NCBI GenBank assembly: GCA_041490525.1
Contig: JBGPTH010000014.1
Coordinates: 1,983 to 65,982 of the forward strand
Length of the DNA: 64,000 nt
Origin: Nitrospiria bacterium
Lineage (GTDB): Bacteria; Nitrospirota; Nitrospiria; Nitrospirales; NS-4
Direction: 5' to 3'
Each line of letters begins with the position of its first letter. Position 1 is the first letter of the stretch. This document shows, one piece after another, positions 34,781 through 61,948 of the stretch. The position numbers and the translations under genes were made by a program. The notes under the pieces were generated by a model that saw only the letters and a program-made list of their open reading frames with translations, was not told where the DNA came from and did no database searches.

Positions 34781-34976
34781 ACGCGGGTCCTGCCGCCGGT
34801 TTCCCCCGCCGGCTTCGGCTGCGAAGACTGGCCTCTAGGCGGCGGGTGGCCCCCTACCAGCGCCACCCGCAAGAAACTCAACCTCCGCTCAAGAAAAAGC
34901 GTGTGGCGGTGAGGCCTTGGGAGGAAGAAAAGGCCTGGCAACTTCCTGAGAGTTGCCAAGCCCCTCTCCTGCTTCA

Positions 34977-36314
34977 TCAGGACTTGATATCACCACTCGG
35001 CAATCCAATATCCACAAGAATTGTAGTTTCTCCAAGTTCCTGCAGCACATTGAACCAAGCGTTCTGGCTCTCTGACAACCTATCATGGGGGCCTTTAACC
35101 TCAGCGAAAGCATGCTCGGTATTCTTCCATATGAAAAGGTCTGGAAGCCCTCGCCGGTTTTCGTTGAAGTTCTTTAATAGTCGATGCATGATTGAAAGCA
35201 GTTGGGATTTGGGCAGGTGTGTGATGACATTCCGAAGATCGTTCAGCGAAAACTTATCCCAGTTTTCGATAGGCCGACATGGCTTCCCGTAATGATCTGA
35301 ATAAGCCTGCTCCAATTCTTGGTTCAGATCAGCAAACTCAAGGACCTTCAAACGTTCGGTTATCAAGCGCTCTCGTTTGGCGAAAAACTCTGGATGGAAA
35401 AAGTCCTGCGGCATGTCCTGCATTTTCGATGGAAAGGGTCCGAACAGTGGCTCCCAGACGCCATCGATTCGAGCAAATATTACATCCCAGAAGAGCAGCG
35501 CCATTAGAGTCCACCAAAGTTGGTTCTCTCCCCATATCCCATCCCACCCTTCACTTCTCAGGTGGTGAAGCGCGACCTGTTCAACAAAGCCCTCAAATTG
35601 ATCGGGCAGTTGAAATTGTGCCTTTCCATGTTCTGTGATCTTTGTAGCGGTAATGCTCATCGTCTGAATTTCTGGATGTTGTGCTGCTGGTATTAACCCT
35701 TGACCTTTGGGAATGGGTGCGGCAGACCTAGACGGGAACAGCAGAAAGAGACGATAGGTTTGCCCATGCCTTTCACGGCGAAGGCGTCCGGCCTTTTCGA
35801 GCCATTGCACCAATGTGCTTGGCCGTCGCCCATCTTCCGTGGCGAGATGCTTCTTGAGATCTGCTTGGAGCACGCCAGGATCACGGGAAACTAAATCCAG
35901 GATCTTATCGACGATATCTGCATCCTTCTCAGCCGTTTCCGCGGCACCTATCCACATCTGAAGTTCCGGGGTCTCCGATAGCGCTTTGCGCAAATCGGCG
36001 ATCCCTCCTCTGTCGCCCATGACAGCCATCAGGGTACTTCCGGTTTCCACTGCAACGGAGTACTGGATGTCGAATCGTCCGTATTCCCGCTTCACTGCTT
36101 CAACAAAAGCCGGAAGGAGGGGATAAGTTCGGCGGGCATATAGGATTGCGGTCCGGTAATCGTGCGCTTTTTGGGCTGCCTCGATCTTTGCGTGGAGCTG
36201 AAAATACTTGTCAACGACGGGGTCATTTTTACCGATTGAATACGAAGGGGGCAATGGGTCCTTTGGACGAAATTCTGGAAGATTCCAGAAGAGGCGTTTC
36301 AAGAAATTGAGCAT
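34977..36314 (-). CDS. VRR-NUC (FAN1-like PD-(D/E)xK nuclease) domain protein with helical and winged-helix-like N-terminal region
   Basis: GIWGEN..W.TL..LLFWD.IF, QDMPQDF, RGLPDL..W, EVKGP.DRLS..Q..W. Confidence 0.8.
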   Translation of the reverse strand: MLNFLKRLFWNLPEFRPKDPLPPSYSIGKNDPVVDKYFQLHAKIEAAQKAHDYRTAILYARRTYPLLPAFVEAVKREYGRFDIQYSVAVETGSTLMAVMGDRGGIADLRKALSETPELQMWIGAAETAEKDADIVDKILDLVSRDPGVLQADLKKHLATEDGRRPSTLVQWLEKAGRLRRERHGQTYRLFLLFPSRSAAPIPKGQGLIPAAQHPEIQTMSITATKITEHGKAQFQLPDQFEGFVEQVALHHLRSEGWDGIWGENQLWWTLMALLFWDVIFARIDGVWEPLFGPFPSKMQDMPQDFFHPEFFAKRERLITERLKVLEFADLNQELEQAYSDHYGKPCRPIENWDKFSLNDLRNVITHLPKSQLLSIMHRLLKNFNENRRGLPDLFIWKNTEHAFAEVKGPHDRLSESQNAWFNVLQELGETTILVDIGLPSGDIKS

Positions 36315-36440
36315 TTTATGGCTGTCTTGTGGGAGGAGAAAAAGATCCGGGAGTCTTTTCCAGATCTTCTAGGCGTTCTTCAGAGACGGTCTGTCGATCA
36401 ATGCCTCCTGGCCAATTTCCCCACACTTTTCCAGCCCCTC

Positions 36441-36491
36441 GTGGCTGCTCACACCCATACCAGCGGCCGTCGGTTCAGGCGCTGGTTAGGC
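36441..36491 (-). repeat. Left part of an integron attC-like site downstream of the HEPN-like gene; right half not recognisable
   Basis: GCCTAAC (RYYYAAC) 13 nt after the TGA, followed by CAGCGCCTGAACCGACGGCCGCTGG. Confidence 0.6.
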
Positions 36492-36504
36492 ATCGACTCG
36501 CTAC

Positions 36505-37149
36505 TCATACTGACGCCGTTGGCGGACAGATTAGAGATTCCATTTCAGCGAGATACTTGTCGTAAGTGTTCCAGCCGAGAGCCACGAGGAGCACCTCGTT
36601 TGCGTAAACGGTGATAGTCGGATTTGACAGTTCGAACGCGAGGTCGGACAGCATTTGTGGGTAGAAGGCGGCAGACAAAGCCTCGAACACCTTCTTGGTG
36701 ATGTCGTGTGGCTCCTCTTCGTCCCAATGGCTGTATTGATTCCTGGCTGCGTAGACGATGAGCCCGACCGGGATACCGTGCCTTTCTCGCCCGATACAGA
36801 AAGGAATAGCGGACTTGTTTGAAGACCGAACCACACCTTGGCAGCTCGAAGGTATCAAGTCGTTTCGCGAAAAGAGTCTGATAGCCATGTAAGCCACTTG
36901 GAGTATCGCACCAGCAAACATGGCCTCTGAAAACTTTAAACTAAAGTACTTGCCAGCCAGCTCCAGGTACCTGTGTAGGGCTGCATTTCTATCCGGCGTC
37001 ATAGGTTGGCAGATTTGGCTGATATCCCAATGTTCGAGGGCCTGCTGATAATACGACCAGCAAGAGTCCAAGCCGGCGTAGAGATGTCTCACGGCGTGCT
37101 CGGTATCTCGAAAGTATTCCTCGGGAGTCTTTAGCGCCGTGACCTTCAT
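36505..37149 (-). CDS. Hypothetical protein with HEPN-like R-x4-H motif, in gene-cassette context
   Basis: ARNQYSH in a mainly helical protein; foreign composition. Confidence 0.6.
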   Translation of the reverse strand: MKVTALKTPEEYFRDTEHAVRHLYAGLDSCWSYYQQALEHWDISQICQPMTPDRNAALHRYLELAGKYFSLKFSEAMFAGAILQVAYMAIRLFSRNDLIPSSCQGVVRSSNKSAIPFCIGRERHGIPVGLIVYAARNQYSHWDEEEPHDITKKVFEALSAAFYPQMLSDLAFELSNPTITVYANEVLLVALGWNTYDKYLAEMESLICPPTASV

Positions 37150-37158
37150 TTGTCGTAT

Positions 37159-37190
37159 GCCTAACTAGAAATTGGCAGAACTGTCTCGCT
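37159..37190 (-). repeat. attC-like right end (core site GTTAGGC) 9 nt upstream of the HEPN-like gene start
   Basis: Minus strand AGTTCTGCCAATTTCTA-GTTAGGC-ATACGACAA-ATG. Confidence 0.6.
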
Positions 37191-37427
37191 ACCTCATACC
37201 CTGTGATCCGATAGCCTATCTCATGGCCTCCATATTGGGAGGCTGAATTGAAAACAGGCTACTTTTTGCGTGGAGGTGTGTCAACTTAATACCATAGGTC
37301 AATCACCAGGTGGCAAGACCCAGAGCGAACTTCACTCATTCTCTAAGGTATGGTGGGACTTGGGTCGCGAATCGCGGAAACTCCCCTCGCCCTCTCCCCT
37401 GAAGCACGGGCGAGGAGTTTGTGGGGG

Positions 37428-37460
37428 GCTAGCGCTTACGCTTGGTTTTCGCTTTCGGTT
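37428..37460 (-). pseudogene. Relic copy of the lpxD 3' end (PKAKTKRKR-stop)
   Basis: 30/33 nt identical to 38759..38791. Confidence 0.75.
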
Positions 37461-37545
37461 CGGGCAAAATCAGCTTGCAACAGTTAGGCCCGGTATTCCA
37501 ATTTTGGATCCACTGTGAGGTAGCTCGAAAAAGGAGGTCAGGAAA

Positions 37546-37875
37546 ATGTCGAGGAGATATATTTCCTTGGGTGGTATGATCTTCGTTGCAATAATGGCTG
37601 CTGGATTTGCCGAACAGCTGACTGCGGAGGAAACGTTATTGGAGGGATTTTTCATCACCAAAGAAATTCGTTTCGATGAAAGCATAGGGGAACGAAAGCC
37701 AACACCTCAAATTCCCAAAAGTTGGCAATTCGTCGGTGTTAGTAACGGAGAAAAGATTAATAGCAACAACCTTTGGTTTCAGGATAAGGATGGCAATATC
37801 TATTTGATACAAGGGTTCAATAGTTACGGGCAGTTTATCGTTAGAGAGGGTATACAGAAATTGAAGGCAAAATAA
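37546..37875 (+). CDS. Small secreted hypothetical protein
   Basis: AGGAGG upstream; signal-peptide-like N-terminus; AT-rich. Confidence 0.6.
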   Translation: MSRRYISLGGMIFVAIMAAGFAEQLTAEETLLEGFFITKEIRFDESIGERKPTPQIPKSWQFVGVSNGEKINSNNLWFQDKDGNIYLIQGFNSYGQFIVREGIQKLKAK

Positions 37876-38143
37876 TGGACCAGCTCCTTCCAACCTGTCT
37901 TCCACTTGGTATCTGTGGGGGTATGGAGCACGTCCCAATAATTACCCTATCATTTTGATCTGATTTTCCAAGGGACCTCCGCTACGCGGAATTGCTTGCG
38001 TGGGACGTTATACCTGCACAACGGAAATGTCTAGTCGCGATAGGAGCGGGTGGCACCGAGCGGGTGCCCTGGTCGCCTGGAGCCGAAAGGCTGAAGCCTA
38101 ATGGGGGAAGGGATGTATAAGGACCCGCGTTCAGGAAGGTGCG

Positions 38144-38209
38144 CCCTTCGACAAGCTCAGGGAAAGCGGAAACCCCTCACCCTAACCCTCTCCCGCAAGT
38201 GGCGAGGGG
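38144..38209. repeat. Two adjacent REP-like elements (CCCTTCGACAAGCTCAGGG and CCCCTCACCCTAACCCTCTCCC-GCAA-GTGGCGAGGGG)
   Basis: Resemble common intergenic stem-loop repeat families; a related element lies at 37383..37417. Confidence 0.55.
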
Positions 38210-38247
38210 AAAAGCGAGACTTTTCGCTACGCTCAGCGTGACAACTA

Positions 38248-38523
38248 TTAGCGGGTGGCGCCCTGATGGCTGGCGATGACCGCGAGAAAAGTCAGCAACA
38301 TTCCCGTAACCTGCCCCTTCTTCTTGTCGGAAGCCTTCTGATCGCTTGCCGGAGGAACCTTCGCTTCCTTAGTTTCAGGGGTATTGAGGGGTGCTGTCGC
38401 CTCGATCTTTGGCTGAGGCGCGGTCGGCTCAGGTGTAGCGGTCAAGGCCGTCGAAGCCATGACGAGTGTCGTGGCAAGCGTCACGACGAAGGCGAGAATT
38501 CCACTCTTCCTCTTAGCAGCCAT
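38248..38523 (-). CDS. Small exported Pro/Ala/Lys-rich protein with C-terminal hydrophobic segment
   Basis: GGAAGGAG upstream of ATG; signal peptide; KKKGQVTGMLLTFLAVIA tail. Confidence 0.55.
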   Translation of the reverse strand: MAAKRKSGILAFVVTLATTLVMASTALTATPEPTAPQPKIEATAPLNTPETKEAKVPPASDQKASDKKKGQVTGMLLTFLAVIASHQGATR

Positions 38524-38759
38524 CGCACACTCCTTCCATTAGGAAGTTTCGCGTCTGAAGTCCTAAATCGTGGAGTGTGCAAACTCCGCGCCGTTGCAAA
38601 GGGCGTGTAACTCTATGGAACGAAAGGGCCTGGTGTCAAGAACAGCCGGCCTATGACGGGGGACAGGTGTGTCATAAACCCTATTAGTGAAGGCTTTTTA
38701 ACGCTTCCAACGCTTCGATGTTGCTTAGGGTTTTGGTTTGCTGCGGAGGGCAGGAGGAG

Positions 38760-49121: not shown

Positions 49122-49148
49122 CCGTCGCGGGGACGGAAAAACACGGCG

Positions 49149-49421
49149 ATGAAAGAACGTGATCCGGAGAAGCTCCAGCTTCTCTACGAGCGGTTTCGCG
49201 ATGTGTGCCTGGTCGAGAAAGAAGTGTGGCGTGAGGTCTTTATGCCACGGGAGCAATCGACGGGCGCCCGCCTGACGAATATCCAGGATCGGTACGAAGT
49301 GGTCATCGACAATCCTGAGGCGGAGGCCACCCTGGAGGCCAATATTCCGCTGGGCCCCAAGGCGTTGGGCGCGGCCATCGCAGAATTCAAGGGCGCCATC
49401 AGCTTCGAAAAGAAGGGGTGA
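49149..49421 (+). CDS. Hypothetical protein
   Basis: Host-like codon usage, fills the gap, follows 48753 ORF. Confidence 0.6.
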   Translation: MKERDPEKLQLLYERFRDVCLVEKEVWREVFMPREQSTGARLTNIQDRYEVVIDNPEAEATLEANIPLGPKALGAAIAEFKGAISFEKKG

Positions 49422-49438
49422 CCGGCGGGACCGCCACC

Positions 49439-49732
49439 CTACTGTACCACCACCCGTAAGCCCCCGTCGGCCAGAATCACCGCAACCTGTTCACAGATTT
49501 TATGGGCTCCCGAATAGACTTCCGCCGATCCCATATGGTCGATGCGATACGCGAGCTCGAAGGCCCGGGTCGGCGTCATCTTGGGAACCGCCCGGCAGAG
49601 CAGGTCGATGACTTGTTGGTAGGTATGGCAATCGCAGTTATAGACGATGACCCGCGCCCCAAGCTCATCGTCGGTTCCTGTGGTGGTCTCCTCAAGGACC
49701 TCGGGGACTGGGGCTGACGGGAACGTGGCCAT
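49439..49732 (-). CDS. clpS: ClpS-like adaptor
   Basis: RVIVYNCDCHTY.QV...L...P.M....A..LA..ID..G.A.VY.G....C. Confidence 0.75.
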   Translation of the reverse strand: MATFPSAPVPEVLEETTTGTDDELGARVIVYNCDCHTYQQVIDLLCRAVPKMTPTRAFELAYRIDHMGSAEVYSGAHKICEQVAVILADGGLRVVVQ

Positions 49733-49876
49733 GGGTATCCTGTCAGGATTTAATTTTACCACACAATGGGTCGGTCACAGTATCCATTGCATTCCCATCC
49801 TTCGCGCTTGTTGGCTCACCGGAGGATCTACCGGGACTCGTCGTATCTCGCTCTGAACGTGACTGCCCTGGGATCC

Positions 49877-50254
49877 ATGACGGCGATCTCCCTCAGCGGC
49901 AAAGTCTGGTGGCCGCTGTTTCCCGTTCTCCTCCTGGTAGTGGTCGTGGCCCTCAGCGCCGCGGTGGTGTGGGCCGTCCGAAGAAAGGCGACCAAAACCG
50001 ACGTCCTAGTTCAGGTCCTGACGCTGCTGTGCTATCTCATCACTGCGGTGGTCGCGATGGCCAGCGAGAGAGGAACCGTCTCACCCCACATTCACAGGCT
50101 CCCGTCGCTCCTGACGCAGGGCCTCATTCTGACGCAGTTGGTCCGCATCTGGCACCGGGACGGCGGGCGTCCGCTACGCCTTCTCAACATGGTCGCCTGG
50201 GGCGGCATTCTGGCCGACACGGCGCTGCACTATCTCATCAGGCCTGGGCCCTAG
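49877..50254 (+). CDS. Four-TM hypothetical membrane protein
   Basis: Four hydrophobic segments. Confidence 0.55.
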   Translation: MTAISLSGKVWWPLFPVLLLVVVVALSAAVVWAVRRKATKTDVLVQVLTLLCYLITAVVAMASERGTVSPHIHRLPSLLTQGLILTQLVRIWHRDGGRPLRLLNMVAWGGILADTALHYLIRPGP

Positions 50255-50281
50255 CCGGTCCCCGCATGGGAACAGGAGGCC

Positions 50282-51025
50282 TCACTTTCGGAGGCCGCAC
50301 GCCCGGGCGATCCCGTCCCGGTACCGGAGCCAGTTATCCAGGGCTTCCTGCATGGCATCGAGGATGAGTTGCTGGTCCGCCGCGCCGGTCGCGTAGGTCA
50401 GCACGGACTTCCAGGCGGACTGGCGATGGCTGGCCTCGACCATGAGATGGACCCTGGTCAGGTCCAGGTACTTCGGATCAATACAGTGGTTCTGCACCAG
50501 ATAGTGCTTCCGCACGGCTTCCTCGATCTGCGCCGGGTCCATGGGCGGAGAAGGATGCAGGAGTTCCCGCCGGTCGTGGAGACTGCCTTCGACAAAGACG
50601 GTGACGACGGCGAGCGCGGTCAGCCAATCCCCCATCAGGGTGATCTTGTCCAACCACTCGCGGTAGGCGCGGCTCTCGGAGAGGAGGCTGACGTCGCGGA
50701 AGTGCGCCCGCTCGAACCCCAGCCCGAGCATCATGTTCAGGAAGAGGTCGGGATGGGATTGGCCGAGGGTCAGGCCGCCGGTGTCCTCCTCGTAGAGATT
50801 GCGGGCCAGATCGCTCCGCACAGGGCGGGGAGGGTTCTTACCGTGGATCCGGCTTAACAACACCGCGAAGTCCCGAACGTACACGGCGTATTCTTGGCGG
50901 TAGTGGATTTCGAGCTGGGCCTTAGTGGTCTGGGGACCGGAAAACAGCGGCCACGCCCAGTGGTCCTTCCGGTCCATGATCGCCAGCAGCTTGTCCCGGA
51001 ACTGATCGCTGGAAAGAACCTTCAT
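50282..51025 (-). CDS. Heme-oxygenase-like diiron oxidase (PqqC/CADD/TenA superfamily)
   Basis: NL.EE..G....SH..LF, VEG, H..VE..H metal-ligand pattern. Confidence 0.75.
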   Translation of the reverse strand: MKVLSSDQFRDKLLAIMDRKDHWAWPLFSGPQTTKAQLEIHYRQEYAVYVRDFAVLLSRIHGKNPPRPVRSDLARNLYEEDTGGLTLGQSHPDLFLNMMLGLGFERAHFRDVSLLSESRAYREWLDKITLMGDWLTALAVVTVFVEGSLHDRRELLHPSPPMDPAQIEEAVRKHYLVQNHCIDPKYLDLTRVHLMVEASHRQSAWKSVLTYATGAADQQLILDAMQEALDNWLRYRDGIARACGLRK

Positions 51026-51063
51026 ACGGGTCTCCCTTGCATCCTTTTAAGGCGGTCGCTAGA

Positions 51064-51363
51064 ATGAGTTATAAGCCGATGGAGCCGATTACGCTGAACA
51101 GCCCGGACGACATCTTCAAGGTCCTCGCGGAGGTGTCGCTCAAGGGGCGTGGGATGACCGCCGAGTGCCTCCTGGATCGCGTCCTTGATGAGGGCTTCAC
51201 CGAGCCCATCTACCTCAATGCCAAGGGGGAGGACCCCGATGCCTTTTATCAGGGCCACCCCAACGCGTGGGCCGTCTATACGATCCGCGAATGGAAGCGT
51301 GTCCTGATGATTTCCGGCGGCCCCGGCCAGGAACGACGGCTCCAAGTCACCGAGACCCCCTGA
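51064..51363 (+). CDS. Hypothetical protein
   Basis: Host-like codon usage; divergent from the diiron oxidase gene. Confidence 0.6.
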   Translation: MSYKPMEPITLNSPDDIFKVLAEVSLKGRGMTAECLLDRVLDEGFTEPIYLNAKGEDPDAFYQGHPNAWAVYTIREWKRVLMISGGPGQERRLQVTETP

Positions 51364-51441
51364 CACGCTCGAAGCCCCAGGGCCGGGCCGGCGGGAACCC
51401 CGGCATTGCGTTTCCCTCCCCCGGAGGGCTACCATACGCGC

Positions 51442-51690
51442 ATGACCATGCTCCTGGTCCCCCGGGACGAAAACGAACTTCTCCTCGTTTCGAGCCTCTT
51501 GGAAGGGGCCGGCATCGCGTACTTTGTCCAGAACGAGCATTTCGGCGGCCTGTATCCCGGGTTGAACCTGTTTCCGTTCAACGAACGGATCATCTTCGTT
51601 GCCGAGCCCGACCTCGATCGCGCCTCTCTGCTGCTGCGGGATTTCCTGGAGGCCGTGGAGGGGACCCCCGAAGCGGACCAGGCGGGCTGA
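51442..51690 (+). CDS. DUF2007-like small protein
   Basis: E..LV.SLLE.AGI.YFV.NE.......P....V...D..RA..LL. Confidence 0.7.
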   Translation: MTMLLVPRDENELLLVSSLLEGAGIAYFVQNEHFGGLYPGLNLFPFNERIIFVAEPDLDRASLLLRDFLEAVEGTPEADQAG

Positions 51691-51696
51691 GGGGCG

Positions 51697-52074
51697 TCAG
51701 TACCACCCGCCGACCAGGGCGTCCTCCTCGAAATACAGATAGCGATGCTTGACGGTGGCGCTGTCGATCCAATCCTCATACACCCACGATTCCCGGCGGA
51801 TCCCGGCGTCGGTATAGCTGACCTCGATCTTATACGGAGACCCCCAACTCCGCAGCACCTGTTCGCGGTTCATGCCCACGACCACCCGCTTCTGGGTGAT
51901 GGCCGTTTCCAAGGTGGGATACCGGTAGCTCGGCAGGACTCGCCACACCAGTATCCCCAGCACCGCGATCACGAGCATCAGGTACAGGACGAGCCGGATC
52001 GGGCGTCGGCGAAGGTAGGGGAGCGGCAGGGACGAGGCGTTCGAGAGACTCATTGATGGAAAAAAGTCTATCAA
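51697..52074 (-). CDS. Membrane-anchored SmpA/BamE-like domain protein
   Basis: TM helix then VGMNREQV..SWG.P, W.Y, YLYFE...LV. Confidence 0.55.
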   Translation of the reverse strand: MIDFFPSMSLSNASSLPLPYLRRRPIRLVLYLMLVIAVLGILVWRVLPSYRYPTLETAITQKRVVVGMNREQVLRSWGSPYKIEVSYTDAGIRRESWVYEDWIDSATVKHRYLYFEEDALVGGWY

Positions 52075-52107
52075 GGAAGCCTTTGCGAGGTCAAGCCTTC
52101 CTCCCGG

Positions 52108-52491
52108 ATGAGGCGCTGCATGTACGTTGAAGTGGAGTCCAATCCCAACTGCGAGGGCTCAGTCTTCCTCCGGTTCCGGGAGCAGGGGCCCGCGCGCCCG
52201 GTGGCGCAGGTCCGCCTCTACGACCGCGTCTCAACGGGAGAGTGGTGCTGGGTGACCGGCTGGCAGGGAGACCCGGCCAATGCCCTCTGCCCGGCGTGGG
52301 CCCTGCCGGTCGAGGATTCCGGATCAGGGGTGGCGTATCTCGTGCGCGGGGGAGAGTGGGGGCTCCGGCTCAGGCCGGTCAAGGCCGAAGAGCCGTGGAC
52401 GTTGGACAGCCCCTGCCAGTGGGGAGAGGCCTACCTCCTCTTGACGGATCTGCGGGATATCCGGTTCGCCGACACCGCCGAAACCGCCTGA
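52108..52491 (+). CDS. Hypothetical protein
   Basis: Coherent ORF with host-like codon usage. Confidence 0.55.
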   Translation: MRRCMYVEVESNPNCEGSVFLRFREQGPARPVAQVRLYDRVSTGEWCWVTGWQGDPANALCPAWALPVEDSGSGVAYLVRGGEWGLRLRPVKAEEPWTLDSPCQWGEAYLLLTDLRDIRFADTAETA

Positions 52492-52542
52492 TCGACCTCG
52501 GACGACCACGGAGCGATGCTCGACCCGGACCCGCGCGTCCCG

Positions 52543-53355
52543 TCAGGGGGCATAGCGGGGCAGGGGGATCTTCTTCTTGACCGGTTCCGCCGGCGGGGGA
52601 AGGGATGCGGCCTTGGCCGAAAAGGGGTTCAGCATCGCCTCATGGGTCAGCTTCGAGTGGTCCTTGATGAATTGCAGGCTGTCCACGGCGAACTCCAGCC
52701 GGCTCACCTTGTCGTTCAGGGTGAGGCGAGGGGGCAGCTCCTCGAGGGTGTACAAGCGATAGGAGAGCGACCAGTCATAGCCGGCCTTGGCCGGCTCCCT
52801 CACCAGACGGCGCCCGTCCTTGGAGACCTGATCCTGGATCAGGATGACGAAGAGGTTGGATCGGAAGGTCGGCGCGTCGTCCGAGGGCGACGGCCGAAAC
52901 TCGGGCACGAGTTTCTGGAGATCCGCAATCGGCACCGGGTAGGGGACGGATACGGGGCCTTCGAGCGAGCCGGCCGGGAGATCGGGACTCAGGAACTCGA
53001 CATCCACCAGAGTGACGATGAGGGGCGGCGCGTCGGCGCCGGTGGTTTTCTCCTCGGCAAACTGGAAGGAGTACCGGATATTCACCTTCTCCCTGGTATA
53101 GACGTACACGTCTTCCCCTATCACGGAGGCCATCTGTTCCTTTAACACGTTCTCCCATTCGTCGAAGGCATGGTATTGGTAGACCCGCTGGGCGGCCAGC
53201 TTGGTCCGGATCTTGTGGGGTTGCCCCAGCGTGGCATGTAGTTCGGGCCGTGCCAGGCCCAGGTACCCGTCCGAGAAGAGACTCCCGGCGTGCGCGGCGG
53301 GAGGGGAGAACCACCAGACCAGGAGGCCAGCAAAGAGGATCGCCATCATTCGCAT
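52543..53355 (-). CDS. Secreted hypothetical protein
   Basis: Signal peptide ending AHA; LGL...EL...LG.P motif near the N-terminus. Confidence 0.65.
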   Translation of the reverse strand: MRMMAILFAGLLVWWFSPPAAHAGSLFSDGYLGLARPELHATLGQPHKIRTKLAAQRVYQYHAFDEWENVLKEQMASVIGEDVYVYTREKVNIRYSFQFAEEKTTGADAPPLIVTLVDVEFLSPDLPAGSLEGPVSVPYPVPIADLQKLVPEFRPSPSDDAPTFRSNLFVILIQDQVSKDGRRLVREPAKAGYDWSLSYRLYTLEELPPRLTLNDKVSRLEFAVDSLQFIKDHSKLTHEAMLNPFSAKAASLPPPAEPVKKKIPLPRYAP

Positions 53356-53521
53356 TGAGGGGCTCCGAGGGTACGCAAATGCTACGGACTGCCCCCCGGA
53401 TTGTCAAGGCGCCCCGCTTGCGCCGCTTGGACCTATCCAGTATAGTCACCGGACGATCCATCGAGAACTCTGTAGGTAGTTCCAGCCCGTCGCCCGTCGA
53501 CGGAACGAGGTCCCGATTTCC

Positions 53522-56500
53522 ATGAGCGGCGTGTCCCCAAGGCCTCTGGAGCTTGAGCAACTGTTGCGCCGGCGCATCGCGATTCTCGACGGCGCGATGG
53601 GCACGATGATCCAGGCGCGTCAGCTCGATGAGGCGGGCTTTCGGGGGCGGCAATTCGCCGACCACCCCACCGATCTGAAAGGGTGCAACGACCTCCTCTG
53701 CCTGACCCAGCCGGACATCATTGAGGAAATCCATCGCCAATATCTCGAATCGGGGGCGGACATCATCGAGACGAACACGTTCAACTCCACGGCGATCTCG
53801 ATGGCCGATTACAAGCTGGAGCCCGTGGTCTATGACCTGAACGTGGCCGGCGCCCAGGCCGCCCGTCGTGCGGTCGAGGCCGTCATGGCGAAGGACCCGT
53901 CCCGCCCGCGGTTCGTGGCCGGGGCGATGGGGCCCACGAACCGCACGGCGTCGATGTCGCCGGATGTCAACAACCCCGCCTTTCGGGCGGTCAGCTACGA
54001 CCAACTGGTCGCCGCCTATACCGAGCAGGTCCGGGGACTGCTGGACGGCGGGGTCGATCTCTTGTTGGCCGAGACGGTCTTTGACACGCTGAACCTCAAG
54101 GCCGCCCTCTTTGCCATCGATCAGTATTTTGAGACCCAGGGACGGCGCGTGCCCGTGATGGTCTCGGTCACCATCACGGACCGGAGCGGCCGGACGCTTT
54201 CCGGCCAGACCGTGGAGGCGTTCTGGAATTCGATCTCCCACATGCCGTTGCTGAGCGTCGGGATCAACTGCGCGCTCGGGGCGAAGCAGATGCGCCCCTA
54301 TATCGGGGAGCTGGCCTCGCTCGCGCCGGTGTACCTCAGTTGCTATCCCAATGCCGGCCTGCCCAACGCCTTCGGAGGGTTCGATGAAACCCCGGAGATC
54401 ATGGCCGCCGACCTCCTGGACTTCGCGTCGAACGGCTGGCTGAACATCGTCGGCGGATGCTGCGGGACGACCCCGGCCCATATCCGTGCCATCGCCGACG
54501 CCGTGCGCGACTGTCCCCCGCGAGTGCCGGTCACCCCCGAACCGTTTACCCGCCTGAGCGGGCTGGAACCGTTGACGATCCGCCCGGAGACCAACTTCGT
54601 CAACATCGGGGAACGCACGAACGTCACCGGGTCCCCCCAGTTCGCCAAACTGGTCCTGAACGCCGAGTACGAGGCCGCCCTGTCTATCGCGCGCCAACAA
54701 GTGGAGGGCGGTGCACAGATGATCGACGTGAACATGGACGAGGGCATGCTGGATTCGGCGGCGGCGATGGAGCAATTCCTGAAGTTGATCGCCTCCGAGC
54801 CGGACATCTCCCGGGTGCCGGTCGTGATCGACAGCTCCAACTGGGCGGTGATCGAGGCGGGGCTCAAGTGCGTCCAGGGCAAGCCGGTCGTGAACTCGAT
54901 CAGCCTGAAGGAAGGGGAGGAGGCGTTCACACGCCGCGCCCGGTTGATCCGGCGGTACGGCGCGGCGGTCGTGGTCATGGCCTTCGATGAAGCGGGGCAG
55001 GCCGACCGGGTGGAACGCAAGGTCGAGATCTGCACGCGGGCGTACCGGATCTTGACCGAGGAGGTGGGGGTTCCACCACAGGACATTATTTTCGATCCCA
55101 ACGTGCTGACCGTCGCCACGGGCATCGAGGAGCACAACACGTACGCGGTGGATTTCATCGAGGCCGTCCGCCGGATCAAGGCCACGCTGCCTCACTGCAA
55201 GGTCAGCGGGGGCATCAGCAATATTTCCTTCTCCTTTCGCGGCAACCACGCGGTCCGCGAGGCGATGCACTCCGCCTTTCTCTATCATGCGATCCGGGCC
55301 GGGCTGGACATGGGCATCGTCAACGCCGGTCAGCTCGCCGTGTACGAAGAGATCCCCAAAGACCTGCTGGAGCTGGTCGAAGACGTCCTGTTGAACCGGC
55401 GCCCGGACGCCACCGAGCGGCTGGTGGCCTTTGCCGAGACCGTCAGGCAGCAGGGCAGAGTTGCCGTGCAGGAGGATGCCTGGCGGGCGGGCACGGTCGA
55501 GGAGCGTCTGTCGCACGCCCTGGTCAAAGGCGTGGTGGAGCACATCGAGGCGGACGTGGAGGAGGCCCGCCGGAAGTACGCCAAGCCTCTGGAGGTGATC
55601 GAAGGCCCCTTGATGGCGGGCATGAACATCGTGGGGGACCTGTTCGGCTCCGGCAAGATGTTTTTGCCCCAGGTCGTCAAGAGCGCGCGCGTGATGAAAA
55701 AGGCGGTGGCTTATCTGTTGCCCTTCATGGAGGAAGAAAAAAAGACCTCCGGCATCAGCCGGGCCCAGGGGAAAATCCTGATGGCCACCGTGAAGGGGGA
55801 CGTGCACGACATCGGGAAGAACATCGTCGGGGTGGTGCTCGGGTGCAACAACTATGAGGTGATCGATCTGGGGGTGATGGTCCCCTGCGACAAGATCCTC
55901 GCGACCGCCCGCGACCGCCAGGTGGACCTGATCGGGCTCAGTGGCCTGATCACCCCCTCGCTGGAGGAGATGGTGCACGTGGCGCGGGAAATGGCGCGGG
56001 AGGGAGTGCAGGTCCCGCTTCTGATCGGCGGGGCCACCACGAGCAAGGCCCATACGGCCGTGAAGATCGCGCCCGCGTACGCGCAGCCGGTGGTCCACGT
56101 GTTGGACGCCTCGAGGGCGGTGGGGGTGGTCAGCCGCCTCCTCAGTCCGGACCAGAAGGCGCCGTTCGCCGAACAAAACCGGCTTGACCAGGAGCGAGTC
56201 CGGCACGCGCACAAGGAGCGCGGGGAGAAGGTCTTGCTCACGTTGGCCGAGGCGCGTGAGCGGAGAACGCCGATCGAGTGGCGAGCCGCCGACATCCCGA
56301 AACCGGCCTTCACCGGCATTCGGGTCCTGGAATCGTGTCCGCTGGGTGAGATTGTCCCGTTCATTGACTGGTCGCCGTTCTTTCACACGTGGGAGCTGCG
56401 CGGGCGCTATCCCAAGATCCTGGAGGACGCGACCGTCGGCCCGAAGGCCAAGGAGCTGTTCGACGACGCACAGGCGCTGCTCAACGAGATCGTGCGCGGC

Positions 56501-57217
56501 AAGCTGCTCACGGCGCGCGGCGTGTACGGTTTCTTCCCGGCGAACAGCGTCGGCGACGACATCGAAGTGTACCGCGACGAGTCGCGCACGTCGGTGCGGA
56601 TGGTGTTCCATACACTCCGCCAGCAGACGCCGAAGCCGGAGGGGCAGTTCAATCAGGCGCTGGCCGATTTCATCGCGCCGAAGTCCACGGGACTTCCGGA
56701 CTACCTCGGCGCGTTCGCGGTCACGAGCGGCATCGGGCTTGAGAAGATCTGCGCGCGCTTCGAGAAGGAGCACGACGACTACAACTCGATCATGGCAAAG
56801 GCGCTGGCGGACCGGCTGGCGGAGGCCTTTGCCGAGCTGTTGCACAAGAAGGCGCGGGAGGAATGGGGCTACGGCGCGGCGGAGGGGCTCGGCCACGAAG
56901 ACCTGATCCGGGAACGCTACCGGGGCATTCGCCCGGCCCCCGGGTACCCGGCCTGTCCGGACCACACCGAGAAGCGCACCTTCTTCGATCTGCTACACGC
57001 GGAGAAGAACGCGGGCATCACCTTGACTGAAACCTTCGCGATGCTTCCGGCCAGCTCGGTCAGTGGATTGTATTTCGCGCATCCCGACGCGAAGTACTTT
57101 GCGGTGGGCAAGCTCGCCCGAGACCAGGTCCTGGACTATGCGCGGCGTAAACAAATGGACGTGGGCGCGATCGAGCGCTGGCTCGCCCCCAATCTGAATT
57201 ACGAGCCGGAGCGGTAA
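53522..57217 (+). CDS. metH: Cobalamin-dependent methionine synthase
   Basis: [62 protein letters not shown]. Confidence 0.98.
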
Positions 57218-57256
57218 GGTGTCTGGCGCCCGGAGGTGTCTTGCTCGATTATCTGA

Positions 57257-57301
57257 GGTGTCTGGCTCAATTTTTCTTCCGAGAAAAATGTGCCTGACAC
57301 C
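57257..57301. repeat. REP-like imperfect palindrome E1
   Basis: GGTGTCTGGCTCAATTTTTCT-TCCG-AGAAAAATGTGCCTGACACC; GGTGTCTGGC also at 57218, directly after the metH stop. Confidence 0.7.
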
Positions 57302-57373
57302 GGGTTTGCTATGCGTCCATCTAGCCACGGGGGATCCGAGGCATCACCTATGAGACACCGCGACGAGGGGAAA

Positions 57374-57406
57374 GGACTAAACAAGGTAACCTGTCCCCTT
57401 TTTCTG
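57374..57406. repeat. REP-like half element E2, a direct repeat of the right arm of E3
   Basis: GGACTAAACAAGGTAACCTGTCCCCTTTTTCTG vs GGACCAAACAAAGTAGCCTGTCCTCTTTTCTG (57784..57815). Confidence 0.65.
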
Positions 57407-57454
57407 GCCGCCAAAATGCCTGCTGAAGCCTAAGCACAGCAAGTCGAGTGATCA

Positions 57455-57724
57455 ATGATGTGGAAAACACTTGGAGAAGCAGCATTCTATTTTGGCTTTG
57501 GGAGCCTGCTGCTTGGTTTTCGTAAGGCCATGACCCCTTCTCGAGAATCTGAGGATAATACCCGACAAATCTTCTGGTGGACCATCAAAGTGTCGCGATG
57601 GGAGCAACGCTATAACTACTACCTTGCAAACTTCATCATCCTGGCGACGGCCAGCGTCGCATTCTTCTTTGGCCTGGTCACACTCTATGCCCTGATTACG
57701 GGCCAGCCGTCGCCTATACGCTAA
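57455..57724 (+). CDS. Small two-TM hypothetical protein
   Basis: Two hydrophobic segments; lies between E2 and E3. Confidence 0.6.
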   Translation: MMWKTLGEAAFYFGFGSLLLGFRKAMTPSRESEDNTRQIFWWTIKVSRWEQRYNYYLANFIILATASVAFFFGLVTLYALITGQPSPIR

Positions 57725-57745
57725 GAATTAAGTGAGGAGTGCGTT

Positions 57746-57815
57746 CAGAAAAAGGGAAAGGCTACCTTCTTTACGGCGTGAGAGGACCAAACAAAGTAGC
57801 CTGTCCTCTTTTCTG
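57746..57815. repeat. REP-like palindrome E3
   Basis: Arms CAGAAAAAGGGAAAGGCTAC / GTAGCCTGTCCTCTTTTCTG, 17/20 complementary. Confidence 0.7.
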
Positions 57816-57826
57816 CTGCCGGGTAA

Positions 57827-58552
57827 ATGATGCCAGATAAAGCAACGCTTGGTGCGAGCGGAGGAGCACCTGAAGATCGGACGGCCATCCTCCGCCGAAG
57901 ACCGGCTCGGACCAGGATACGAATTCTCAACGTTCGGAAAATTTTCCCTCCGGATGACGAGCTTGCAACAATCATCGCTCGCTTATGCATTCTGAGGGAA
58001 GATCTATCTCTTGAAATCCATGGCATTGTCTTTGATCCAATGGAGTTCCTAGACAGGAATTCGATCCCATGGCGGCACAACTACTTCTTCAGGAATTCGG
58101 TCAGGACGCTGATGGAGATCAGGGGAGCGCTACAAACCTTGAACTGCAATGTGGAATTCAAGCGGATCCTTAAAAGGTGTGAACCTAAAGCGCAAGAGTA
58201 TTTCAAAGAATTTTGTAAGCGCATTAACGAGGCCCATGGACTTATTGAGGAAGTACGAAACAGCATTGGGGCACACGTCAAGCACAATGCTGTTGGACGG
58301 GGTCTGAAGTCGGTTCCCTTCGAAAGAACTGGAGTCTGGGAAGAGTCGCAGGATTTTATCCATACACATCATCGTTTTTCGAATGAATTGTTTATTGCCA
58401 TCTTGCAGGGAGGGGATCGTCCTTATGATGTTCCAGACAAGGACATAACGGAAGTCCTAGAAATGACAGGGACCATGGCTCGCCTGACAGAGGCCATTCC
58501 GCTCATTGATATGCTATTTAGGCTTTACCTTCATGAAAGGCATCTGCTCTAA
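57827..58552 (+). CDS. Hypothetical protein with HEPN-like R-x5-H motif
   Basis: EVRNSIGAH in a helical protein; foreign composition. Confidence 0.6.
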   Translation: MMPDKATLGASGGAPEDRTAILRRRPARTRIRILNVRKIFPPDDELATIIARLCILREDLSLEIHGIVFDPMEFLDRNSIPWRHNYFFRNSVRTLMEIRGALQTLNCNVEFKRILKRCEPKAQEYFKEFCKRINEAHGLIEEVRNSIGAHVKHNAVGRGLKSVPFERTGVWEESQDFIHTHHRFSNELFIAILQGGDRPYDVPDKDITEVLEMTGTMARLTEAIPLIDMLFRLYLHERHLL

Positions 58553-58570
58553 TCCGTACAAAGAAGGTCA

Positions 58571-58617
58571 GGGCAGGTCTTGCAATCATCCATCGTCGTA
58601 ATGCAAGACGTCACTCC
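58571..58617. repeat. REP-like palindrome E4
   Basis: GGGCAGGTCTTGCAAT...ATGCAAGACGTCACTCC with perfect GTCTTGCA/TGCAAGAC stem. Confidence 0.65.
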
Positions 58618-58674
58618 GAGAAGTTTCCATGGTTCCATCTTCTTTGCCTACAACGGTAGCTTCCGAGGCACTGC

Positions 58675-59652
58675 ATGATCATCGCTATTGATGAATCAGG
58701 GTCTTTTGCACCGGACGCAAAGGAGCGACACTTCTTTTCTGCGATTCACCTCCGTCAGCGGAGGACGTTCTACAAACTGAAAGAGCGACAATTTACAGAC
58801 TGGGAGATGTCGTTGCCTCGAACTCTGAAGAACGCAAAGGGAGAAATTAAAAGTTCTAGTTTGTCCGATGATCAACTATCGGAGTTTGCGCGCGTTGTTC
58901 TTTGCGGCCAACACTATGTGGGTGTGACACCATTTGCGATTAATCCAACCGATAATCCTAAATCGGTCGTTGAAAAGCATCGCGCAGTCGCCTTGGTTGG
59001 TATTCAGGAGGGGGTAAAAGGCTATACCGCTCAGGGAAAGAAAAAATTAGCAGCTGTTTATCAGGACTTTGGGAATTGGCTACAAAGACTAAGCTATTCG
59101 CAGTTCCTTAAGATTGTATTACTCGGTTCGTGCCTGTCCTCGGCGATCGTAAACACAATGGGGCATGCGATCTCTGGAGGGCATGATGAAGAGCTGATGC
59201 GAATGGAATTTCTTATCGACCGGGATTTCATAAAAGAACCGAGACACCAATTTTTTTGGCGTAACATTTGGCGTAATCAGCTTTACCACGCCAGTAAATT
59301 AAATCCTTTCCCGATGTTAGAGAAGTGGAAGGAGAAGGGCCATCCCTTTTTGACGAAATATATGCGGGAGGGCCATCTGGATTTCAGTGATCTTTTCTCT
59401 AATCACCTCAGGTTCGTTCAATCGCATGCGTATTTCGAGATACGGATAGCCGACGCCGTAAATACCATCCTTTTTCGCTTTTTCAATCAACGGCGGTGTG
59501 CCCTCGCATACAAGTATCTTCGCAGCTGCATTCTGTATGATGGAAAGGTCCATCAGATACTCTTGAGAGACTTTGATCTTGATGCCTGGCGCTATGACCC
59601 CGACGCAAATCCTTGGGGGAAGTTTCCGAGTTCTTCAGAGAAGGTCATGTAA
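58675..59652 (+). CDS. DUF3800-like (RNase H-fold) protein
   Basis: N-terminal IAIDESG, EIK, FLIDR, C-terminal IRIAD motifs. Confidence 0.7.
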   Translation: MIIAIDESGSFAPDAKERHFFSAIHLRQRRTFYKLKERQFTDWEMSLPRTLKNAKGEIKSSSLSDDQLSEFARVVLCGQHYVGVTPFAINPTDNPKSVVEKHRAVALVGIQEGVKGYTAQGKKKLAAVYQDFGNWLQRLSYSQFLKIVLLGSCLSSAIVNTMGHAISGGHDEELMRMEFLIDRDFIKEPRHQFFWRNIWRNQLYHASKLNPFPMLEKWKEKGHPFLTKYMREGHLDFSDLFSNHLRFVQSHAYFEIRIADAVNTILFRFFNQRRCALAYKYLRSCILYDGKVHQILLRDFDLDAWRYDPDANPWGKFPSSSEKVM

Positions 59653-59711
59653 GGGAATTGTGAAATTAATCTGGGTTGGAGTTGACTGTTCAGCCCGCCT
59701 AAAACAAACGT

Positions 59712-59812
59712 GGCGTCAGTCACCGTTTTCCGATTCGCAAGCAAACAGATAATGAAAACGGTGACAGACCCCGACCTATGACTCCTCGGAGAAAACGGTA
59801 ACAGACACCGTT
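59712..59812. repeat. REP-like palindrome E5 plus tandem copy of its right arm
   Basis: GTCACCGTTTTC (59719..59730) / GAAAACGGTGAC (59754..59765) perfect 12 bp; GAAAACGGTAACAGACACCG repeated at ~59791; related half site GGTGTCAGTCACCGT at 60183..60197. Confidence 0.7.
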
Positions 59813-59817
59813 CCTCG

Positions 59818-59869
59818 CTACGGCTGCTTGTCGGTCTTCAGTTGAACGACCTGCTGCGGGTAGGGCATC
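59818..59869 (-). pseudogene. Relic copy of the mscS 3' end (MPYPQQVVQLKTDKQP-stop)
   Basis: 59826..59869 matches 60907..60950 at 43/44 nt. Confidence 0.85.
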
Positions 59870-59878
59870 CGGCGGAGG

Positions 59879-60109
59879 TCATTTTAGCTTGGAGCGGGCG
59901 TCGTCAAAAACCTGAGCAGCGGGTTTGGGAGCGAGTGTCCCTCGTCGGTAGTCCTGATAGCGGCGCTCGGCCTCTTGCAGCCATAGCTCTTCCGCCTCCA
60001 CATCCTCACCGATGTCCAGGCTGGCGATCAGACTGTGCGCGAGATGGGCGCGGTCAGCCGCGGGGAGTTGTTTGGCCTCCTGTTCAAGCTGTGATAATGC
60101 TTTTCCCAT
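59879..60109 (-). CDS. Addiction-module antitoxin component (TIGR02574-like), cognate toxin missing
   Basis: GAGGAGA SD; A..LP..DRA.LA..L..SL.....W..EAERR...Y..G. Confidence 0.8.
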   Translation of the reverse strand: MGKALSQLEQEAKQLPAADRAHLAHSLIASLDIGEDVEAEELWLQEAERRYQDYRRGTLAPKPAAQVFDDARSKLK

Positions 60110-60244
60110 GGTCTCTCCTCTATGGCTGGCGACATTCTGACTGTACTCGTCCAGCCATGAATTTTCAATATCCATTGAAACTGGTGTCAGTCACCGTCGG
60201 ATTTTTTGCTTGACTTGTGAAGTAGGAATTCATACCATGATGGT

Positions 60245-60475
60245 ATGAAAACCGTGGTTTCGGAAAAGGGGCAGGTGACGATCCCCAAGCCGATCCGTGA
60301 TCGCCTGGGCATTCGGGCGGGCCAAGCCTTGGATTTCCGTGCGGAGCAGGGGCAGTTGGTGGCGACCAAGATCACGCCTCAGGACGCAGTCGAGAGCGTG
60401 TACGGGATACTTAAGCTTGGACGGCCGACGGATGCGGTGATGAAAACGTTGCGCGGGACGGCCGGCGCGAGGTGA
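60245..60475 (+). CDS. AbrB/MazE-fold antitoxin
   Basis: VSEKGQVTIPK.IR..LGI..G..L.F. Confidence 0.9.
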   Translation: MKTVVSEKGQVTIPKPIRDRLGIRAGQALDFRAEQGQLVATKITPQDAVESVYGILKLGRPTDAVMKTLRGTAGAR

Positions 60476-60882
60476 TCACGGCAGTCGACACGAGCGTCCT
60501 GCTCGACATTTTCGGCGCCGATCCTGCCTTCGGGAGTCGCTCCAAAGCGGCTCTGCGTTCCTGTATCAGCGAAGGCGGCCTGATTGCCTGCGAGGTCGTA
60601 TGGGCGGAGGTGGCAGGCCTCTTTCCAACATCCGAGGCCGCCCAAGACGCCATGAGGCGTTTAAGCGTGGAATTCAGCGCTATCGAAATCGAAACGGCGC
60701 TGGCAGCCGGCGCGTCCTGGAAGAAGTATCGGGATCGGGGTGGACGGCGGAATCGGGTGGCGGCTGATTTCTTGATCGGCGCGCATGCGTTGTTGCAAGC
60801 CAATCGGCTGTTGACGCGGGATCGTGGATTCTATCGGGCCTATTTTTCCTCCCTGAAGGTGGTCGACTCTTCAAAAGCCTGA
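60472..60882 (+). CDS. vapC: PIN-domain (VapC) toxin
   Basis: AVDTSVL.D, VVWAEV, ADF.IGAHA, LLTRD; GTGA overlap with the antitoxin stop. Confidence 0.9.
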   Translation: MITAVDTSVLLDIFGADPAFGSRSKAALRSCISEGGLIACEVVWAEVAGLFPTSEAAQDAMRRLSVEFSAIEIETALAAGASWKKYRDRGGRRNRVAADFLIGAHALLQANRLLTRDRGFYRAYFSSLKVVDSSKA

Positions 60883-60889
60883 AGAGGCT

Positions 60890-61948
60890 CTATATCTGTT
60901 CGGTCGGCTTGTCGGTCTTCAGTTGAACGACTTGCTGCGGGTAGGGCATCTCGATCTGTTCGTCCTTGAACCGTTTCAGAATGCGCTTGCGGAGCTCGTG
61001 CTGGACCAGTCCCTGGTCCTCGAATTCCCGGACATGGACGCCCAGGGTGAAGTCCAGCGACGACGCGCCGAAGCCGGGAATGAGCCTGACGGCGGGCGCC
61101 GGCTCCGCCAAAAGCCCCGGCACCTGGCCCACGGCTTTCTGGGCCTCCTCGAGCAGCACCCGTTCGACGCGGTCCGGATCGGTCCCGTACGACACGCTGA
61201 CGGTGAGGGACACGGCCATGCGCGGGTCGGGGAGGAAGTAGTTGGTCAGGATGGACTGCGTCAGCTTGTTGTTGGGGATGATCACCAGATTGTTGGGAAG
61301 CATGCGGATCCGCGTCGTGCGCCACCCGATGTCCACGATGTAGCCCTCCTGGCCCGTTTCGAGCTTCACGAAGTCGCCGATCCGCACCGGCTTCTCGATC
61401 AAGAGATGAATGCCGGCGAAGAAGTTGGACAGGGTGTCCTGCAGGGCCAGCGCGACCGCCAGCCCGCCCACGCCCAAGGCGGTGAGAATCGGCGCGATCG
61501 AGACCCCCAGGCCGCTCAGGAGCACCAGCCCGCCGACGATCCAGATCGTCACCTTGATGATCGTGATGGAAAGCCCGGTGGCCGGGAGCGCCAGATTGTT
61601 CTTCCGGAGCGTGTCCCACAGGGTTGACGCCGCCACGTTCGCCAGCGCGGCCGTCGCCGAGACCACCAACAGCGCGTACACGATGCTGAGCGCAGCGGCC
61701 CCGGGGCGCGGCGGCAGGGGCGCGAGATCGAGCGCGACGTACAGGCCGATCAGCACGCACCAGACGGCCGAGGGAAGGCGGAGGCTCCGCACGAGGACAT
61801 CGTCGAGCCGGGTCGGCGTGCGCGCGGCCCAGCGGTAGAGCGCGCGGAGCGCGAGGTGACGAAAGCCGAGCGCCAAGCCGGTGACGACGGCGAAGGCGGC
61901 CAGGCCCTTGAGGGCGGTGATGACTTCGGCGGATAAGCTCTTCATCAT
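60890..61948 (-). CDS. mscS: Small-conductance mechanosensitive channel family protein
   Basis: GVGGLAVALALQDTLSNFFAGI, P.RIGD, IG.R.T.IR, IPN. Confidence 0.92.
   Translation of the reverse strand: MMKSLSAEVITALKGLAAFAVVTGLALGFRHLALRALYRWAARTPTRLDDVLVRSLRLPSAVWCVLIGLYVALDLAPLPPRPGAAALSIVYALLVVSATAALANVAASTLWDTLRKNNLALPATGLSITIIKVTIWIVGGLVLLSGLGVSIAPILTALGVGGLAVALALQDTLSNFFAGIHLLIEKPVRIGDFVKLETGQEGYIVDIGWRTTRIRMLPNNLVIIPNNKLTQSILTNYFLPDPRMAVSLTVSVSYGTDPDRVERVLLEEAQKAVGQVPGLLAEPAPAVRLIPGFGASSLDFTLGVHVREFEDQGLVQHELRKRILKRFKDEQIEMPYPQQVVQLKTDKPTEQI

Follow-up and report, generated by a model that had tools for sequence, protein, structure and literature searches.

Short relics of gene 3' ends recur beside small low-GC islets in a Nitrospiria genome

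We analysed a 64,000-nucleotide (nt) stretch of DNA from a Nitrospiria bacterium, hereafter the window (positions 1983-65982 of contig JBGPTH010000014.1, our contig C14), which belongs to a 2.82-Mb assembly in 62 contigs resembling a metagenome-assembled genome (MAG). Two islets of low G+C content (GC) in this window each contain a short relic, complete with in-frame stop codon, of the 3' end of a core gene that bounds them, lpxD in one case and mscS in the other. Clean relics of this kind stand at ten sites of the genome, against none in a control scan. We read them as scars of integrase-independent, homology-anchored 3'-end displacement between related genomes, resembling either homology-facilitated illegitimate recombination (HFIR) or Campbell-type integration, and give this reading roughly an even chance.

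An earlier note on this DNA had placed both islets between convergent core genes and reported in each a near-identical copy of the right-hand gene's tail; both observations hold. The islets lie between thiE and lpxD (island 1) and between metH and mscS (island 2), with a GC of 0.46-0.58 against 0.62-0.69 in the surrounding DNA. The copy of the lpxD end spans 39 nt (37425-37463 against 38756-38794) at 87% identity, with a core of 30/33 matching positions and a spacing of 1331 nt; it encodes PKAKTKRKR* where the gene reads PKEKSKRKR*, and thus keeps the stop in frame. The mscS copy matches its gene at 43/44 positions (59826-59869 against 60907-60950) at a spacing of 1081 nt, again with an in-frame stop. 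The ungapped scores of the two repeats, 24 for lpxD and 30 for mscS, compare with a maximum of 16 in the control of 2047 genes described below. The features concerned are the following.

34109-34780, plus strand: thiE, thiamine-phosphate synthase (PF02581, E 7.7e-65), left core flank of island 1.
34781-38759: island 1, low-GC islet between convergent thiE and lpxD (GC 0.48-0.57 against about 0.65 in the flanks).
37425-37463, minus strand: relic of the lpxD 3' end, with its own stop (CTA, 37429-37431), encoding PKAKTKRKR*.
38760-39893, minus strand: lpxD (PF04613 and Hexapep), right core flank of island 1; duplicated tail block 38756-38794.
53522-57217, plus strand: metH, with five methionine-synthase domains, left core flank of island 2.
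57218-60889: island 2, low-GC islet between convergent metH and mscS (GC 0.46-0.58).
59818-59869, minus strand: relic of the mscS 3' end, with the natural-type ending KTDKQP* and its stop at 59818-59820.
60890-61948, minus strand: MscS-family channel gene (PF00924, PF21082, PF21088), right core flank of island 2; duplicated block 60907-60950.

From two such sites the earlier note had proposed a recurrent process, and the whole genome bears this out. The last 50 nt plus 10 nt of each of 2047 core-like open reading frames (ORFs) were compared without gaps (+1/-2 scoring, cut-off at a score of at least 20) with the 100-6000 nt downstream of the same ORF, and the reverse-complement orientation of the same 2047 genes served as control. 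The gene set came from our own heuristic based on ORFs and GC at third codon positions (GC3) instead of a gene caller, and low-GC genes were therefore left out as queries. A direct tail copy was found downstream of 16 genes and of none in the control, where the score never exceeded 16. Six of the 16 matches are paralogues or repeat proteins with long homology (on contigs C40, C49, C10, C11 and C4, for example). The other ten are clean, tail-only relics of 20-68 nt, derived from ten unrelated genes.

Chance similarity or faulty assembly, which the earlier note had named as what would undo its proposal, or else paralogy, might be suspected from the fragmented, MAG-like nature of the 62 contigs and from the six matches just set aside. 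However, both repeats of the window score well above the control maximum, their homology is limited to the gene tail with its in-frame stop, and five or more assemblies made independently show identical sequence. The arrangement of island 2 recurs in a Joint Genome Institute (JGI) metagenome, in an NCBI assembly (GCA_041498675.1) and in Logan assemblies, and 1351 nt around its relic are 100% identical in five other assemblies; two independent Logan contigs preserve the gene order of island 1 at 99.96% identity. We consider the probability of this explanation negligible.

The ten relics are much alike. At each site, new DNA separates the intact gene from an orphaned 3' fragment downstream, which has the orientation of the gene. 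The homology sets in sharply 31-75 nt ahead of the stop and runs out at a point from -21 to +8 relative to it, in six of ten cases within about two codons; each copy also retains an in-frame stop at almost the same position. Relics and genes are 87-100% identical, and the exchange would therefore have taken place between close relatives. The inserts measure 0.25-2.8 kb and mostly hold complete genes with tidy spacers. Eight of the ten relics touch a low-GC islet, compared with 21% of all core-like gene ends, so that the suspected link to variable DNA holds as well. The scars, then, exist, recur and mark variable DNA.

Two parts of the earlier picture found no support. The sites are confined neither to convergent genes, since topA-trmFO and a site between an aminoacyl-tRNA synthetase (aaRS) gene and rsmH are codirectional, nor to 3' ends. 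When low-copy direct repeats (24-120 nt long, 150-6000 nt apart) were listed without bias, seven pairs fell at 3' ends and five at 5' ends or promoters of core-like genes; at C6:71506-72310, for instance, a 690-nt insert is bracketed by two copies of a 58-nt block that comprises a promoter and the initial 11 codons. A 35-nt promoter/5'-end block is likewise duplicated around a small insert at C6:1967-2563, and such blocks on C6 mirror the 3' relics and give the cargo a copy of the core-gene promoter. Nor did we find the proposed layering of modules: no further copies of the lpxD, mscS, thiE or metH tails occur above background deeper in the islands, each of which holds a single relic.

The process is general, because an order-level relative (G023) showed a similar density of relics when 1.2 Mb were scanned in the same way, with two clean tail relics and one ambiguous case. 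One of the clean relics there, about 150 nt long and comprising the 3' end of a groEL-like gene and its terminator, lies 1.18 kb downstream of the gene (G023:C1:351477-354300), and its identity drops toward its 5' side.

The topA-trmFO site bears on which of the two copies is ancestral. The gap between these genes is 19-104 nt in 17 family-level genomes, 1968 nt here and 2822 nt in G016, a member of another genus of the family. In our genome it is the relic that keeps the ancestral position, with the conserved TGTGCTAGAAT box and trmFO directly following it. The functional topA ends with the second copy of the tail, reading KEV*, an ending that is natural in G001, and is followed by 1.8 kb of DNA with a GC of 0.44 and a PIN gene. 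The duplicated block covers -75 to -7 and may extend to +10. At the same site in G016, only some 15-20 nt around the stop and the -10 box are duplicated, and the cargo is unrelated (a single pair compared). Because of this second, dissimilar insertion, the spot must be counted as hit repeatedly and with different breakpoints. The G016 insert (L030, G016:C110:2150-5300) is 2.8 kb long and holds one large secreted-protein gene. In the topA relic of our genome (C21:18565-20435), the tail and the -10 box of trmFO are separated by an additional inserted palindrome of about 60 nt (CTGAGAC...GTCTCAG).

At one of the ten relic sites, that of island 2, a junction could be resolved, and it runs through a gene. 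The features at this end of the island are listed here.

59870-59882, minus strand: junction, consisting of the parE start ATGACC (59882-59877) and 7 nt of filler, followed by the mscS relic.
59879-60109, minus strand: orphan ParD-like antitoxin gene (Unstab_antitox/TIGR02574; PF09720, E 3e-11).
60177-60197: half site of repetitive extragenic palindromic (REP) family 1.
60204-60885, plus strand: vapBC cassette, comprising a promoter, vapB (60245-60475) and vapC (60472-60882) (PF04014, PF01850).

An antitoxin 84% identical to the ParD-like protein is encoded at locus L101, where it is paired with a 97-amino-acid (aa) ParE and its stop overlaps the parE start by ATGA. DNA homology between the window and this intact parDE locus ends after ATGACC; parE has thus been cut after two codons, right at the relic. 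Because the cargo is cut inside a gene, the relic boundary is an illegitimate junction. The relic retains the natural ending KTDKQP*, comparable with KTDRQP* and KTDHQT* in the MscS proteins of two relatives (L107 and G004), whereas the functional gene has the atypical end KTDKPTEQI* and stops 7 nt from vapC. We count this difference in favour of displacement. None of four family-level relatives has an mscS relic. In one of them (G004, locus L011, G004:C29:1-20000), a 534-nt pseudogene fragment of the mscS 3' part with an internal TGA adjoins metH, followed by a 10-kb osmoprotection block (trehalose synthesis, an ABC transporter and a Na-H exchanger) that includes a second, full-length mscS; the metH-side islet of the same genome contains a ParE toxin gene.

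Neither islet contains an integrase or transposase, as the earlier note had stated: Pfam searches of 10 island ORFs found none, and a six-frame search of the whole genome (PF00589, PF00239, PF07508, PF01797) gave matches on other contigs only. The same is true of the relics at large, with no integrase or integrase fragment at any relic site or in any insert. The orphan recombinases whose presence the earlier note had suggested checking did not turn up either; tyrosine recombinases other than xerC adjoin tRNA genes, and the one serine recombinase adjoins tRNA-Glu. Of the two mechanisms then put forward, homology-anchored recombination consequently fares better than a recombinase acting in trans on gene 3' ends, for which the genome has no matching enzyme and the duplicated blocks have no common motif.

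These results also bear on the possibility that the relics are attachment (att) scars, that is, the attL and attR of elements mobilised by tyrosine or serine recombinases, with an attP that mimicked the gene tail. Their integrase would have been lost by internal deletion, or the modules would have been moved in trans as satellites or in the manner of cis-mobilizable elements (CIMEs). The geometry is exactly that of elements inserted into gene 3' ends, with bounding repeats that match the end of the target gene; blocks of 20-68 nt have the usual size of att identity segments, the majority of inserts are neat whole-gene cassettes, and the vapBC unit described below occurs with identical ends in four contexts, two of them behind mscS in different lineages. 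The same genome even provides the canonical case, an integrase island of about 6 kb (C41:15454-21555) where 49 nt of the tRNA-Phe 3' end form a perfect direct repeat and a tyrosine integrase lies beside the tRNA gene. Yet ten targets without a common motif would demand ten specificities, no site retains even part of an integrase and the integrases of the genome sit at tRNA genes, the inserts reach only 0.25-2.8 kb, and each site has one scar instead of a length-invariant array. Moreover, parE is cut 7 nt from the block, which is not how an element ends, and the two topA-trmFO insertions, although a single pair, differ in both cargo and extent of duplication. We therefore regard att scars as rather unlikely.

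The insertions could also have arisen in situ, by capture of foreign DNA at a staggered break or by template switching similar to microhomology-mediated break-induced replication (MMBIR), with a long and variable target duplication. The point of return would lie 20-85 nt upstream of the point of departure, and selection would keep only events at gene ends, which spare the gene and the promoter of its neighbour. Both junctions of island 2 indeed look illegitimate, as the mscS tail continues into sequence foreign to mscS (KPTEQI*) and parE is cut at the far junction; the topA duplication seems to span tail, stop and the trmFO -10 box, leaving topA whole and trmFO with its promoter; promoter and 5'-end blocks are duplicated likewise, and block lengths vary continuously. 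On the other hand, six of the ten homologies end within about two codons of the stop, which better fits a tail supplied by related DNA, and the copies differ by up to 13%, non-synonymous changes included. A search of this genome for Ku found none, and we know of no documented bacterial pathway that would produce such events at this frequency. This explanation appears quite unlikely.

The vapBC cassette of island 2 offers a view of how the cargo moves. Its vapB (AbrB/MazE-fold) overlaps the PIN toxin gene vapC by 4 nt (60472-60475), as expected of a VapBC type II toxin-antitoxin (TA) module. Homology of the 0.68-kb unit starts at the promoter -35 and ends 3 nt beyond the vapC stop in each of four genomic contexts: behind mscS in the window, behind mscS at L107 (173-854), behind a malK-like gene at L108-L111 (455-1132 in L108), and between other genes at L106 (3736-4402). 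Between the window and L107, the cassette is 87% identical, with a fourfold-site identity of 0.70-0.72, whereas mscS is 75% identical (orthologous proteins 73%), with a fourfold-site identity of 0.53. This difference makes the cassette younger than the split of the two lineages, yet it sits at the same locus in both. The junctions between mscS and vapBC, 7 nt here and 36 nt in L107, are unalignable. We rejected the idea that the 3' part of mscS travelled together with vapBC; identity of mscS with L107 is not raised near the junction.

Displacement by homology is favoured over its competitors because the ten blocks have no common motif and no recombinase lies at or near the relic sites, because one junction cuts a toxin gene and breakpoints differ between the two topA-trmFO insertions, and because vapBC has spread to the same locus in two lineages, as homology-dependent transfer predicts. 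The starting point would be related genomes that carry different DNA behind the same core gene, whose homology allows the incoming DNA to pair. In an HFIR-type event, the other end of that DNA, having no homology or only a few tens of bases, would be joined illegitimately; in a Campbell-type event, a circle carrying a short segment of the gene tail would integrate by a single crossover, as proposed for rhs. Either route would yield one complete gene, the cargo, and an orphan tail copy of 20-68 nt with its stop. The shortness of the relics may reflect the fate of longer overlaps, which normal homologous recombination would resolve without a trace or which would in time cause deletion of the insert. 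What we infer, then, is the pathway of recombination, the direction of transfer and the reason why relics are short. ComEC and DprA are both encoded in this genome, which permits transformation but does not demonstrate it.

Several observations weigh against displacement. The sampled assemblies, all identical, include no donor, no empty-site allele and no circular form. The illegitimate end of classical HFIR usually deletes recipient DNA instead of duplicating it, and duplication of a recipient gene tail is not the usual outcome; a RecA-dependent crossover on 20-68 nt is inefficient. Discrete cassettes, too, would explain why most inserts contain whole genes with tidy spacers, and the occurrence of vapBC behind mscS in two lineages, with junctions that cannot be aligned, could equally mean a preference for the site. 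ComEC and DprA, finally, are found in 10-11 of 14 control genomes, non-competent ones included. The equal ends of vapBC in four contexts, and its arrival behind mscS in two lineages that had split before the cassette diverged, would suit an undescribed, integrase-free targeting process that moves small cassettes such as the 0.68-kb vapBC to gene ends. In duplicating 20-85 nt of its target, the process would leave both the gene and the promoter of its neighbour intact, and it could involve a trans-acting recombinase or the REP/RAYT system considered below. We see only a slim chance that such a process exists.

The remaining features of the two islands comprise cargo genes and hairpins.

34977-36314, minus strand: 445-aa protein with a C-terminal VRR-NUC nuclease domain (PF08774, E 9.5e-19), inner cargo of island 1.
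36505-37149, minus strand: 214-aa ORF, called HEPN-like in the earlier note; no Pfam, PADLOC or NCBIfam match.
37384-37420: REP-like hairpin of family 2 (copy at 37390), directly after the lpxD relic stop in gene orientation.
37546-37875, plus strand: 109-aa secreted protein, cargo between relic and lpxD, with 126 homologues.
38248-38523, minus strand: 91-aa small signal-peptide protein, cargo between relic and lpxD; an ORF with no family match.
57827-58552, plus strand: 241-aa all-helical ORF, also called HEPN-like; no hidden Markov model (HMM) match.
58675-59652, plus strand: 325-aa ORF with a weak DUF3800 match (PF12686, E 0.009, under the curated cut-off).
59712-59810: inverted REP pair resembling a REP doublet forming hairpins (REPIN) plus one extra REP (family 1), from inverted repeats and the motif census, directly after the mscS relic stop in gene orientation.

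Among the 10 island ORFs, Pfam recognised only VRR-NUC, Unstab_antitox, MazE/AbrB, PIN and the sub-threshold DUF3800. The islet cargo accordingly consists of TA modules, a VRR-NUC nuclease, small secreted proteins and ORFs without a family; with no PADLOC match among it, the label of defence modules was not upheld. The supposed HEPN-like genes fared no better, as neither protein (36505-37149, 57827-58552) matched anything in Pfam, PADLOC or NCBIfam even at E<=10, and single-sequence AlphaFold (AF2) models, with confidences (predicted local distance difference test, pLDDT) of 35 and 53, respectively, were too poor for use. Homologues of the 109-aa secreted protein (n=126) come from very diverse lineages and are mostly single inserted genes; no gene-tail relics were seen beside them in the genomic contexts inspected. 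The 91-aa ORF is also called as a gene in two independent contigs.

The REP-like hairpins reported earlier are genuine. Family 1 (AACGGTGACAGACMCC) has 82 matches in the genome against 7 in the control, and family 2 (CCCTCTCCC...GGGGAGAGG) has 17 against 4, two of its copies lying inside island 1. A single RAYT (Y1 transposase) gene (C25:28895-29233) is flanked by copies of the family-1 motif (28784-28827), as expected of a REP/RAYT system. In both window islands, a REP-type hairpin follows immediately after the stop of the relic, as it would at a real gene end. We nevertheless rejected REP/RAYT as the cause of the duplications, since REPs have no positional link to the duplicated blocks. Several contigs end in the family-1 motif, which probably breaks the assembly. 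A third REP-like family (GTAACCTGTCCCnTTTTTCTG) occurs between genes of island 2 (57360-57410, 57745-57816) and at C4:105975-106035.

Many chromosomal hotspots of transfer lack recognisable mobile-element genes, and the route by which DNA enters them is mostly inferred. Short gene-tail relics are scars in the sequence itself and lend themselves to counting in any genome, and their length range, the ancestral position of the relic and the truncated gene at a junction all bear on mechanism. These features speak for the view that many small islets behind housekeeping genes are seeded by ordinary recombination between related genomes and not by dedicated integrases. If the upper limit of relic length reflected the minimum homology for RecA, recombination parameters could be read from uncultured organisms.

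Similar events are known from other systems. At rhs loci, displacement of the C-terminal region via a circular intermediate has been proposed (Jackson et al. 2009, PMC2935791), and the sequential displacement of effector-immunity modules of the type VI secretion system (T6SS) in Vibrio cholerae was attributed to HFIR (Kirchberger et al. 2017, PMC5361080). As in our genome, new DNA lies between an intact gene and an orphaned piece of that gene's own 3' region, no integrase is present and exchange occurs among close relatives; the proposed routes are homologous recombination of a circular intermediate, or a homologous anchor combined with an illegitimate join. In contrast to rhs and T6SS, the genes affected here are housekeeping genes (lpxD, mscS, topA, an aaRS gene and others) instead of polymorphic toxins, the relics measure only 20-68 nt and stand one per site instead of in strings of orphans, and promoters and 5' ends are affected as well.

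HFIR itself was described in natural transformation (de Vries & Wackernagel 2002; Prudhomme et al. 2002; Meier & Wackernagel 2003, cited in PMC2884548). It shares with our sites one homologous anchor, one illegitimate junction and the absence of mobile-element enzymes, and it is proposed as a major source of small variable segments; experimental demonstrations of HFIR come from competent model species only. Integrase-less CIMEs flanked by att sites and accretion at 3' ends are exemplified by the fda site of Streptococcus (review PMC5704250) and the ssrA islands of Dehalococcoides (PMC3146451). There, too, direct repeats of gene 3' ends bound small modules without recombination genes, and islands are proposed to build up in tandem. 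Our sites differ in that the genome has no cognate integrase and no length-invariant att arrays, breakpoints vary at one site and a junction gene is truncated. With REP/REPIN-RAYT systems our genome shares palindromic families in the intergenic gaps of islets and a RAYT gene flanked by the same motif, but its REPs stand beside relics, not at the duplicated blocks, and nothing links them to duplication. In conclusion, the pattern of gene-tail relics is real, statistically solid and recurrent, and the type of event has close precedents in rhs and T6SS displacement, in HFIR and in att scars.

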